Translations under genes and position numbers: made by a program | The notes under the pieces: model-generated | Told to the model about the DNA's origin: nothing | What the model saw: only the letters and a program-made list of their open reading frames with translations | The model's database searches: none | Shown here: positions 1,176 to 3,540 of the stretch, one piece after another | Layout: every line of letters starts with the position of its first letter | Position numbering within the stretch: the stretch's first letter is position 1 | Assembly: GCF_003334255.1 (NCBI RefSeq) | Contig: NZ_QOWU01000119.1 | Reading direction: 5' to 3' (one strand) | Source of the DNA: Escherichia coli | GTDB lineage: Bacteria; Pseudomonadota; Gammaproteobacteria; Enterobacterales; Enterobacteriaceae | Length of the DNA: 3,540 nt

Positions 1176-1328
1176 TCCTGATGATTTTGGGGCGCTGGAA
1201 AGATATTGTGCTGTGAAGTGTTAAATTCCTCACAATTCAGTAAGTTGACAGTTGCCTGTCAGACTGGGCATTTGTTAAAAAAATTTCGCATGGTGAATCC
1301 CCCTGAGCGGAGGGGCGACTGGTGACGG

Positions 1329-1334
1329 TATAAT
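1329..1334 (+). promoter_or_regulatory. Consensus -10 hexamer TATAAT without a convincing -35
   Basis: TATAAT at 1329-1334. No good TTGACA-like hexamer lies 16-18 bp upstream (AGCGGA at 17 bp). The consensus TTGACA at 1245-1250 is too far away to pair with it and has no good -10 of its own. Confidence 0.25.
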
Positions 1335-1340
1335 CTCTGA

Positions 1341-1462
1341 TTATCAAAACGAGAATGACGCGGGTTTAGTGGCACCGGGCTGAACTCACCGGGAGGCACC
1401 CGGCACCATGTTCATGGTGATACAGAAATGCGGCTTCAGCCCCTCTCCGGAGGGGCTTTCTT
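1341..1462 (+). ncRNA. Hypothetical small structured RNA of about 120 nt, running from the candidate -10 to the intrinsic terminator
   Basis: There is no credible ORF in this interval. Consecutive hairpins: CCGGG-aggca-CCCGG (1389-1403), perfect palindrome CACCATG-tt-CATGGTG (1404-1419), and the terminator hairpin at 1438-1457 followed by a T-rich tract. Purely structural inference. Confidence 0.25.
1438..1462 (+). terminator. Rho-independent terminator, + strand
   Basis: AGCCCCTC (1438-1445), loop TCCG, GAGGGGCT (1450-1457): an 8-bp GC-rich stem followed by TTCTTAT. Confidence 0.6.
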
Positions 1463-1468
1463 ATGGAC

Positions 1469-1496
1469 AAAAAAGCCCGCGCTGGGAGACGCGGGC
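1469..1496 (-). terminator. Rho-independent terminator, - strand, back to back with the + strand terminator
   Basis: On the + strand: A6 (1469-1474), then GCCCGCG (1475-1481), 8-nt loop, CGCGGGC (1490-1496). Read on the - strand this is a 7-bp GC stem followed by TTTTTT. Confidence 0.5.
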
Positions 1497-1680
1497 GGCA
1501 AGGAATAAACAATAAAACGTGAAGTAATATTTCAGCTGGCGAATAATACCCCATAGTAATCACTCTGCGCAACTGCGCGGCCTTTTTCGTATTGCGGGCT
1601 GTAGTCTCCCTTCTGCCATTGTCCTGTAACTTCCGGACTTCAGCTCGCTCCTTATCTGACTCACAACATTATCCCGACCG

Positions 1681-1686
1681 GGAGGA
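1681..1686 (+). promoter_or_regulatory. Shine-Dalgarno sequence for the esterase gene
   Basis: GGAGGA at 1681-1686, 3 nt upstream of ATG 1690. Confidence 0.6.
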
Positions 1687-1689
1687 TTC

Positions 1690-3540
1690 ATGACATTTAA
1701 ACACTACGATGTGGTCAGGGCGGCGTCGCCGTCAGACCTTGCGGAGCGACTGACACAAAAACTGAAGGAGGGGTGGCAGCCATTTGGCAGCCCTGTGGCC
1801 ATCACGCCTTATACCCTGATGCAGGCCATTGCGGCGGAAGGTGATGTCACCACACCGGTGGTGGTGCAACCGTCGGGTGATGGTGGCGCTGTTATCAGCA
1901 CCACCAGCGAACCGGAATATTACTTTGTCATTGCGCTGGCCGGGCAGTCCAACTCGATGTCTTTTGGCGAGGGGCTGCCGCTGCCGGAGACATATGACCG
2001 TCCGGACCCGCGTATTAAACAGCTGGCGCGTCGCAGTACGGTGACGCCGGGTGGTGCCGCCTGTAAATATAACGACATCATTCCGGCAGACCACTGTCTG
2101 CATGATGTGCAGGATATGAGTAACCTGAATCATCCTCATGCAGACCTGAGTAAGGGACAGTACGGTTGTGTGGGGCATGCTCTGCATGTTGCCAAAAAGC
2201 TGCTGCCGTTTATGCCTGCGAATGCGGGTATCCTTCTTGTTCCATGTGGCCGTGGCGATTCGGGATTTACTGCGGGGGCCGAGGGGGCGTTTAACGAAGC
2301 GTCGGGAGCGACCGCAGGCTCGTCCCTGTGGGGGGCGGATAAACCGCTGTATCATGACCTGGTCAGCAGAACCCGTGCGGCCCTGAAGAAAAATCCGAAG
2401 AACGTGCTGTTATCAGTGATCTGGATGCAGGGAGAAAAAGATGTCAGTTCGGGGAGACATGCAGAACACAATGCGCTTTTCCTTGCCATGGTAAATCAGT
2501 TCCGTACGGAACTGGCAGATGTGGCAGAGCAGTGTACTGGCGGGACAACGGCCAGCGTCCCGTGGATTTGCGGTGATACCACGTACTACTGGAAGGAAAG
2601 GTATGCAGCGCCGTATGAGGCGGTTTACGGTGGGTATAAAGGCAAAGCTGCGCAGAATATTCACTTTGTGCCGTTGATGACGGATGAGCATGGTGTGAAT
2701 GTGCCGACAAACGAGCCGTCAGAAGATCCGGACATTATCCCGGCGGGATACTATGGCGCTGCGTCACGCACTGCCAGTAACTGGACGTCAGCCGATCGTA
2801 AAACGCACTTCAGTTCATGGGCGCGAAGAGGCCTTGTTTCAGACCGCCTGGCAGGTGCCATTTTGCAGTACGCCGGGCGGACATTATCGTTCCTTACCGG
2901 GCAGAGCGCACCGCAGTCGGGTGGTACAACTCCCGGTGATGATGTCAGTCCGGGGGTACCGGGTGTTGAGAAACCGCAGGATGGCGGTGTTGCTGGTACT
3001 GGTCATGATGAGGCCGTGAGCAGTACCAGGACGGTGGCTGAATATGATGCGAACAGTGGAAATGGTGTATGGACAGAGCAGCAGTGGGGGGCTGCCGGTG
3101 GCAAAGGCACTGTGACTGATGACGGTGGACGGAAAGCGCTACGACTGGAAAAACAGCCCGGTAAACTGACGTCCTGGAAAATGTTCCGTACTGTTGCAGT
3201 GGAGGAGGCAAAAAATCTTCTCAGCAAGGGGGGTGAAATTGCCGTACGGTTCAAAATTCCGGATGGAAGCGAACTGGTGAACGGACAGTTTGTCTTTGGT
3301 CTCTACTGGCCGGTGTCGCAGTGGGCGTCAGGCGCGGCAGCAAACAGTATGCTGGCATCATTCTTCCTTCAGACGGATGCATCAAATCTGAATCTTATGC
3401 ACCACAAGGGCACGTCGAATGCACAACTGGGTACATTTGGTGCGTTTGACCATAACTGGCATACGGTTGTTTTCCGCTTTGCGGGAAATAACAGCGAAAG
3501 AGTCGTTCCGGTGATTGATGGTACAGAGCAGACGGCGTTT
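1690..3540 (+). CDS. nanS-p: Prophage-type sialate (9-O-acetyl-N-acetylneuraminate) O-acetylesterase, NanS-p family; 5' partial, continues past the window end
   Basis: ATG at 1690 with a strong SD. I translated all 617 codons to the window end with no stop. The N-terminus MTFKHYDVVRAASPSDLAERLTQKLKEGWQPFG... matches the DUF1737-type N-terminal domain. It is followed by the SGNH/SASA esterase block YYFVIALAGQSNSMSFGEGLPLPETYDRPDPRIKQLAR with the catalytic GQSN serine motif, as in E. coli NanS (YjhS) and the Stx-phage paralogues. A Gly/Pro/Thr-rich linker (about 2890-3010) and a further C-terminal domain follow. Confidence 0.9.
   Translation, partial: MTFKHYDVVRAASPSDLAERLTQKLKEGWQPFGSPVAITPYTLMQAIAAEGDVTTPVVVQPSGDGGAVISTTSEPEYYFVIALAGQSNSMSFGEGLPLPETYDRPDPRIKQLARRSTVTPGGAACKYNDIIPADHCLHDVQDMSNLNHPHADLSKGQYGCVGHALHVAKKLLPFMPANAGILLVPCGRGDSGFTAGAEGAFNEASGATAGSSLWGADKPLYHDLVSRTRAALKKNPKNVLLSVIWMQGEKDVSSGRHAEHNALFLAMVNQFRTELADVAEQCTGGTTASVPWICGDTTYYWKERYAAPYEAVYGGYKGKAAQNIHFVPLMTDEHGVNVPTNEPSEDPDIIPAGYYGAASRTASNWTSADRKTHFSSWARRGLVSDRLAGAILQYAGRTLSFLTGQSAPQSGGTTPGDDVSPGVPGVEKPQDGGVAGTGHDEAVSSTRTVAEYDANSGNGVWTEQQWGAAGGKGTVTDDGGRKALRLEKQPGKLTSWKMFRTVAVEEAKNLLSKGGEIAVRFKIPDGSELVNGQFVFGLYWPVSQWASGAAANSMLASFFLQTDASNLNLMHHKGTSNAQLGTFGAFDHNWHTVVFRFAGNNSERVVPVIDGTEQTAF

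Follow-up and report, generated by a model that had tools for sequence, protein, structure and literature searches.

Two GC-rich hairpins that face each other in an Escherichia coli prophage are, with a probability of about 0.88, the Rho-independent terminators of two convergent genes for Hfq-binding small RNAs (sRNAs). The genes lie in the moron slot of a lambdoid prophage, with STnc100 on the plus strand and a homologue of EcOnc08/21/42 on the minus strand. Their 3' ends face each other: STnc100 ends at position 1468, and the EcOnc08 homologue at 1469-1474. Positions refer to the window, the whole stretch of 3,540 nucleotides that was analysed. Expression and Hfq binding of both RNAs are expected by analogy with their homologues in strain Sakai. 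The architecture of convergent pairs was already described in 2014, and the window holds another copy of it.

The plus-strand stem (1438-1457) is formed by the arms AGCCCCTC and GAGGGGCT around a loop of 4 nt, TCCG. It has 8 pairs, including 6 G-C, and is followed on its 3' side by the tail TTCTTATG. Its folding energy is -17.3 kcal/mol (z = -3.5 against 200 dinucleotide shuffles). A terminator scan finds here the components of a Rho-independent terminator, which are a GC-rich stem, a loop of 3-8 nt and an adjacent 3' U-tract, the last of these being interrupted (UUCUUAUG).

The minus-strand stem runs from 1496 to 1475, with the arms GCCCGCGU and GCGCGGGC and a 6-nt loop, CUCCCA. Seven of its 8 pairs are G-C and one is U.G, which becomes a C.A mismatch when read on the plus strand. 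Directly 3' of the stem lies U6 (1474-1469), seen on the plus strand as A6 (1469-1474). This hairpin has a folding energy of -16.9 and z = -3.9 against dinucleotide shuffles, and the scan again finds stem, loop and 3' U-tract. Read on the plus strand, the same hairpin gives -15.4 and z -2.1. The two stems are 17 nt apart. A first-pass annotation had described two back-to-back hairpins at these positions with a gap of about 7 nt between the plus-strand tail and the A-run, and the stems, energies and z-scores on both strands agree with it, as does the gap. Terminator-like sites number 6 in the window against 2.5 +/- 2.0 in shuffles, a count that is not significant alone. Because of this, the case for the pair beyond chance rests on comparison.

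The plus-strand hairpin is the 3' end of an STnc100 sRNA gene and not the terminator of the cargo ORF. The Rfam family STnc100 (RF02076) matches the plus strand at 1259-1468 with 165.6 bits (E 1.3e-38), against a gathering score of 47 bits. The match covers model positions 1-206 of 206, and the hairpin at 1438-1457 is aligned to the terminal helix of the covariance model. The gene (1259..1468, 210 nt, with the 5' end set by the Rfam model alone) belongs to the EcOnc05/EcOnc27 class and is a homologue of EcOnc05 in Sakai prophage Sp4. It consists of a conserved, structured 5' domain that extends to CACCATG (1410), a variable 3' region (1411-1437) and the terminator (1438..1466), whose stem-loop and U-rich tail UUCUUAUGG are identified by the scan, by folding and by the covariance model. 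Other loci have an identical plus-strand hairpin or compensated variants of it (AGGCUCCU..AGGAGCCU, GGCCUCU..AGGGGCC).

Copies of STnc100 are also described in other strains. In EHEC EDL933 there are eleven, which are transcribed, one of them confirmed by Northern blot (PMC5331693), and in STEC strains stx2 is followed 75 nt downstream by a copy (PMC12370729). The family is related to the PasD sRNAs of EPEC, which adjoin a sialate esterase gene (bioRxiv 10.64898/2026.05.13.724894). The window copy resembles the STnc100/PasD group of Zhu, Shabalina and Storz (2026) in being a full-length member beside a sialate esterase gene, as is the case for PasD2 and STnc100. Unlike the EcOnc04-type variants of STnc100, it has a 3' variable region of another type.

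Several features of the STnc100 units can be observed across loci. At least six unrelated 3' variants are joined to one common 5' domain among the IMG/VR loci, and one of these variants contains a CA-rich stretch, ACAACAACAAUACA. Upstream of STnc100 in the window, the plus strand has a conserved block at 1213-1251 (TGTGAAGTGTTAAATTCCTCACAATTCAGTAAGTTGACA) with an inverted repeat, TGTGA-N13-TCACA, and a perfect TTGACA. The same block is found again where STnc100 units begin in other loci. STnc100 cores also occur in tandem, two to three per viral contig (L008, at 6867-9628, as well as L019, L022, L050 and L071). The distance within a pair is 484 nt, and in L008 three cores fall within 2.8 kb. 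Since these tandem cores are on single viral contigs, the sRNA module has been duplicated inside single prophages.

The 2014 description concerns the prophages of O157 Sakai, in which Tree et al. reported "convergent sRNAs" between a moron coding sequence downstream of PR' and a conserved ORF (PMC4104026). Convergent pairs are found in eight of the Sakai prophages (Sp3, 4, 5, 9, 10, 11, 15 and 17), and in Sp5 EcOnc27 and AsxR are located immediately 3' of stx2B (PMC4104026). The Hfq peaks of Sp4 include EcOnc05 on the plus strand (Sakai 1179806-1179914, Northern ~222 nt), EcOnc08 on the minus strand (1179938-1180010, Northern ~271 nt, 5/5 datasets) and, contiguous with EcOnc08 on the same strand, EcOnc21 (1180016-1180101, Northern ~271 nt; PMC4104026 Table S2). 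EcOnc42 is the copy that 'bookends' stx1AB (PMC7547250) and belongs to the Stx1-phage Sp15. The target or function of EcOnc08/21/42 is given as unknown in a review (PMC7873438).

Homology with these peaks identifies the minus-strand gene. The EcOnc08 sequence of Sp4 (TCGCCAGCTGAAATATTACTTCACGTTTTGTTGTTTATTCCTTGCCGCCCGCGTCTCCCTGCGCGGGCTTTTT) is identical to the minus strand of the window at 71/73 positions (1470-1542), and EcOnc21 at 79/86 (1633-1548). In Sakai, the 3' edge of the EcOnc08 Hfq-CRAC peak is inside the U-run that corresponds to the minus-strand hairpin of the window. From the scan, the folding and this peak end, the stem-loop at 1496-1475 with its U6 (1474-1469) is predicted to be the Rho-independent terminator (1469..1496, minus strand) of an RNA homologous to EcOnc08, which is bound by Hfq in Sakai. 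The minus-strand segment 1548..1633 is the equivalent of the EcOnc21 peak and would be the upstream part of a ~271-nt RNA antisense to the 5' UTR of the esterase gene.

A search of the window region with Rfam gives no family match for the minus-strand cassette. The models of AsxR and AgvB have zero matches on 1430-1700, even at E<=10. Matches on the minus strand to OmrA-B (21.8 bits), Leu leader (20.8) and anti-hemB (19.2) were rejected, being below the gathering score and driven by the terminator. The assignment of a plus-strand STnc100 variant with 'ACAACAACAATACAG' as AgvB was likewise ruled out, because Rfam and the published sequences put AgvB and AsxR on the minus strand.

Two genes thus fill what had been called a non-coding spacer, and the first hairpin in it is the 3' end of a 210-nt STnc100 RNA. 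The statement that no credible minus-strand gene is visible does not hold either, given the EcOnc08 homologue with 71/73 identity. The expectation that transcription arrives from both sides is confirmed at homologous loci, which in Sakai have the EcOnc08/EcOnc21 Hfq-CRAC peaks and the ~271-nt Northern signal.

The E. coli prophage to which the window belongs is lambdoid and resembles Stx phages, and the window covers part of its late region. The window begins with the C-terminus of a DNA methyltransferase (ORF at 10-243). Two tRNA genes follow on the plus strand: tRNA-Ile2(cat) at 284-359, which ARAGORN reports as tRNA-Met(cat) and RefSeq, for an identical gene, as tRNA-Ile (ileZ-like, with a lysidine-modified CAT), and tRNA-Arg(tcg) at 369-445. 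Stx phages typically carry three tRNAs, ileZ, argN and argO. The window has two of this trio, and argO is absent. Further along the plus strand are a 142-aa ORF with a lipoprotein-like N-terminus (LTTGC; 724-1152), named 'cell envelope integrity protein TolA' in RefSeq, and a NanS-p/SASA-type esterase gene that starts at 1690. The TolA-like ORF sits in the moron slot that is held by stxAB in Stx phages.

The closest complete genome is that of strain G1/2, whose locus (L001) is 97.7% identical across the whole window. There the order is antiterminator, methylase, two tRNAs, TolA-like ORF, the hairpin pair, SASA esterase, holin and lysozyme, on the plus strand. DUF1378, DUF826 and Rz-type genes are also present downstream, and nearly all genes are on one strand. 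In this order, with which the ORFs of the window agree, the pair is located downstream of Q/PR' and the moron coding sequence and upstream of the NanS-p-like esterase. Several hundred records of Stx-converting phages match the intergenic region of the window.

Compared with Sakai Sp4, the two genes are alike in order, orientation and spacing, they lie between a tRNA/moron region and an esterase-like ORF as do EcOnc05 and EcOnc08-EcOnc21, and the terminator hairpins are the same. Unlike Sp4, the window prophage lacks a toxin, has TolA-like cargo and carries two tRNAs in place of three. The variable region of STnc100 at 1411-1437 (TTCATGGTGATACAGAAATGCGGCTT versus CAATGGCACATAGCGCCACTCTC) sets the window apart from both G1/2 and Sp4. 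The A-run is A6 where Sp4 has A7, and the minus-strand RNA has one base change in the loop and one in the body.

Evidence that the pair is more than a local coincidence can be provided by other viral loci. A search of IMG/VR with an exact 24-nt STnc100 core pattern gave 120 stretches with 119 usable occurrences. The plus-strand terminator is present at 110/119 of these cores, and at 44/119 it is followed 14-20 nt later by a minus-strand terminator. Among the 44 loci, the second hairpin takes 10 distinct sequences from at least four unrelated stem families (GCCCGCGU.., GCCCGA.., UGCCCGAA.., AACCGCUC.., GCCCGCCA..). All 44 have at least 5 U within 8 nt on the minus strand, as this was the search criterion. 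In the variants that were read directly, a run of A5-A9 stands ahead of the second hairpin on the plus strand and no T-run stands after it.

Within the EcOnc08 class, alleles differ at stem positions 1, 2 and 7 on both sides with the pair kept, and position 8 is U.G, C-G or U-A. In the window and in L105, the U.G pairs are valid on the minus strand alone, being C.A mismatches on the plus strand. The compensatory changes come from the more distant alleles. For nine close EcOnc08 variants, RNAalifold gives the terminator helix alone, with 0 double compensatory changes and one-sided changes only. Stem pairs were tabulated by hand because MAFFT shifts the terminator of L008 by one column. Diverged alleles set in differing flanks retain the blocks CUUCACGUUUU and UAUUCCUUGC.

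The EcOnc08-type cassette is present in 987/5426 complete E. coli genomes (about 18%). Phage records that carry it number 53, among them Stx1 and Stx2a phages and VT1-Sakai. No feature is annotated under the cassette in 12/12 records among the matches listed.

Alignment with strain G1/2 shows near-identity on both sides of a single stretch of complete homology loss, at about 1478-1564 of the window and 7478-7552 of L001. The G1/2 cassette is AsxR on the minus strand (RF02703, 63 bits; AgvB 43 bits). Because AsxR replaces this stretch, the minus-strand gene behaves as an exchangeable cassette. The breakpoints lie just past the A-run on the left and at a plus-strand hairpin, CTGCGCAACTGCGCGG, on the right, which suggests recombinational exchange of alleles.

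The hairpin at the right boundary is a third terminator-like site on the plus strand (1565..1587; CUGCGC-AACU-GCGCGG, then CCUUUUU), and homology with G1/2 resumes here. It also carries the -35 element of the predicted minus-strand promoter. Its sequence is similar to that of the EcOnc04-type STnc100 terminator (GGCTGCGCATGGCGCGGCC+T8, GGCUGCGCAUGGCGCGGCC+U8).

The minus-strand gene of the window is like AsxR (RF02703), AgvB (RF02702) and EcOnc03 in its slot and in its orientation, convergent with STnc100. It is also like them in its upstream -35 and spacing and in encoding a short RNA with a GC hairpin and a U-run that is, judging by the Sakai homologue, bound by Hfq. Unlike AsxR and AgvB, its transcribed part is non-homologous and the conserved 42-nt 3' region (GUAUCUCAUGC..UUGCCCGAACCCAnUCGGGC) is absent. 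The predicted RNA is 69 nt rather than 51-60 nt long, and it has no known sponge target.

The short form is defined by a putative sigma-70 promoter (1543..1572, minus strand). On this strand the window reads TTGCGC (-35, 1572-1567), 18 nt, TATTAT (-10, 1548-1543), 5 nt and an A at 1537. The published sequences of AsxR and AgvB have RACE-mapped 5' ends (PMC4104026), and upstream of these the minus strand reads TTGCGC, 18 nt, TAAAAT, 5 nt and the transcription start site (TSS). This geometry is common to the window, AsxR and AgvB. A start at about 1537 would give an sRNA of ~69 nt (1469..1537, minus strand), made up of AGCUGAAAUAUUACUUCACGUUUUAUUGUUUAUUCCUUGCC, the terminator and U6; AGCUGAAAUAUUACUUCACGUUUUAUUGUUUAUUCC, within 1470-1535, is a stretch of it. 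On balance, such a short form with its own promoter is the likelier state of affairs, a prediction made from the TTGCGC-18 nt-TATTAT pattern. The predicted -35 is weak (3/6), and an automated promoter scan of the window did not list the 1572..1543 site.

The promoter of the EcOnc08 class is kept in the diverged alleles L008 and L105. In L005, L008, L105 and variant v18 it is kept together with CUUCACGUUUU and UAUUCCUUGC, while the right-hand flanks are unrelated and the terminator stems differ. A promoter and body kept amid unrelated flanks is the pattern expected of an autonomous short sRNA gene. The odds are about even that the gene is one allele of a hot-swappable sRNA cassette. Such a cassette would be bounded by the A-run on the left and the conserved plus-strand hairpin on the right and would have a common -35. 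Recombination would swap bodies of the AsxR/AgvB type and of the EcOnc08 type in and out of it, and every body would bring its own -10, seed and terminator. The EcOnc08 type would then be an autonomous Hfq sRNA of ~69 nt, possibly a sponge, that was missed since the Northern probe lies upstream.

Alternately, the minus-strand hairpin may end only a long cis-antisense RNA (~190-270 nt, EcOnc08 plus EcOnc21) whose start would be close to, or within, the 5' end of the esterase gene, with no short sRNA. Its function would be antisense control of the esterase 5' UTR or of the late transcript. This is the less likely reading, though one to be taken seriously. It accounts for the ~271-nt Northern signal and for the contiguity of the EcOnc21 and EcOnc08 peaks, and a promoter-like site is available at 1696..1668. 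The Northern probe for EcOnc08/21/42 (AATAATATCCGACAGTAATCACTCTGCGCAATAGC) corresponds to window positions 1542-1576. Because the short RNA is predicted to begin only downstream of the probe, the blot could not detect the short form, and it neither supports nor excludes it; it shows minus-strand transcription through the promoter region from further upstream. An RNA of ~271 nt would need to start near 1740, within the esterase coding sequence, where no sigma-70-like promoter was found: the only minus-strand sites are 1696..1668 and 1572..1543. The first of these (1668..1696, ATGTCA-17-GATAAT), a weak consensus match, is a candidate origin of a longer RNA with a TSS at about 1661, which would yield ~193 nt and not ~271 nt. 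The long reading is further opposed by L005, L008, L105 and v18, which keep the -35/-10 and the RNA body with an unrelated right side, so that the conserved element cannot be a promoter inside the esterase gene, and by a promoter geometry equal to that of AsxR and AgvB. The two forms, long and short, may occur together. The first-pass annotation had proposed a small or antisense minus-strand transcript originating in 1500-1690. The transcript stands, and its origin does so in part, since the short form starts inside this interval (~1537) and the ~271-nt form outside it (~1740). The site at 1668-1696 overlaps the esterase start codon, and an RNA from there or from further right would be antisense to the esterase ribosome-binding site. 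In EDL933, a 114-nt minus-strand RNA, ncR1641710, lies ~200 nt past one STnc100 copy (PMC5331693).

The remaining readings dispense with a minus-strand sRNA gene. The second hairpin does fold on the plus strand too (-15.4), and a terminator-like plus-strand hairpin is next to it at 1565-1587. It could thus be the 5' stem-loop of an RNA ending there, or an element for the stability or processing of the late transcript, with the A-run incidental. This is very unlikely: every variant read directly has A5-A9 before the hairpin and no T-run after it, the U.G pairs are valid on the minus strand alone, z is -2.1 on the plus strand versus -3.9 on the minus, and the Hfq CRAC reads in Sakai are on the minus strand. 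A gene-less, two-way insulator between the cargo module and the esterase/lysis module had also been suggested, and two strong facing terminators 17 nt apart in a region where all protein genes are on the plus strand would fit it. It is nevertheless highly improbable. The plus-strand terminator belongs to an sRNA gene, a 97%-identical homologue has an Hfq-bound minus-strand RNA that ends at the hairpin, and AsxR occupies the allelic slot of the nearest relative. A true plus-strand insulator would also be counter-productive, as late transcription from PR' must reach the lysis genes. With a minus-strand gene present the insulator is unnecessary, although a passive insulating effect is trivially true. 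The probability is negligible that the hairpins are chance palindromes or parts of small coding ORFs (1408-1515, plus strand, 35 aa; 1366-1572, minus strand, 68 aa). Both ORFs exist mechanically, and the number of terminator-like sites is not significantly above that in shuffles. Each ORF spans the cassette breakpoint, however, and neither is intact in the closest relative. The architecture turns up again with stems of unrelated sequence, and a covariance model and an Hfq peak cover the region. Conserved reading frames with synonymous-biased substitution were not seen across the alleles.

In the preferred reading, that of two convergent sRNA genes, the moron slot would be flanked by the NanS-p-type esterase gene on one side and, on the other, by a cargo ORF that lies downstream of PR'/Q, and the minus-strand gene would hold the place of the anti-sRNAs AsxR and AgvB in sister prophages. 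In the lysogen, each sRNA would be transcribed from its own promoter towards its partner and would stop at its own hairpin. Each hairpin with its U-tail would halt RNA polymerase a few bases before the partner gene. Stopping there would prevent polymerases from colliding, or antisense transcription from running through the partner.

Hfq-dependent sRNAs need a 3' stem-loop and poly-U. Because both genes encode sRNAs, the terminators would double as 3' modules for Hfq binding, with each hairpin and its poly-U also serving stability. Generic convergent terminators likewise have two GC hairpins, a common T-run/A-run spacer and polymerases stopped from both sides. Unlike a generic bidirectional terminator, the window has two separate hairpins, both of them belonging to sRNA genes. 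After induction, Q-modified polymerase from PR' would be expected, from the biology of lambda Q, to read through the plus-strand terminators into the esterase and lysis genes.

In itself the finding is a small addition, as the pairs were published in 2014 and the plus-strand partner is an Rfam family. What is modestly new is the cassette-like allelism with AsxR, with defined breakpoints and a common -35, together with the predicted ~69-nt EcOnc08 RNA. The value of the finding is mainly for annotation, the EcOnc08/21/42 class having no Rfam model. AsxR and AgvB reprogram core sRNA networks of EHEC, affecting haem use and amino-acid transport. Since they are its slot-mates, a short EcOnc08 RNA, once defined, could reasonably be proposed as a further regulator encoded by a prophage.
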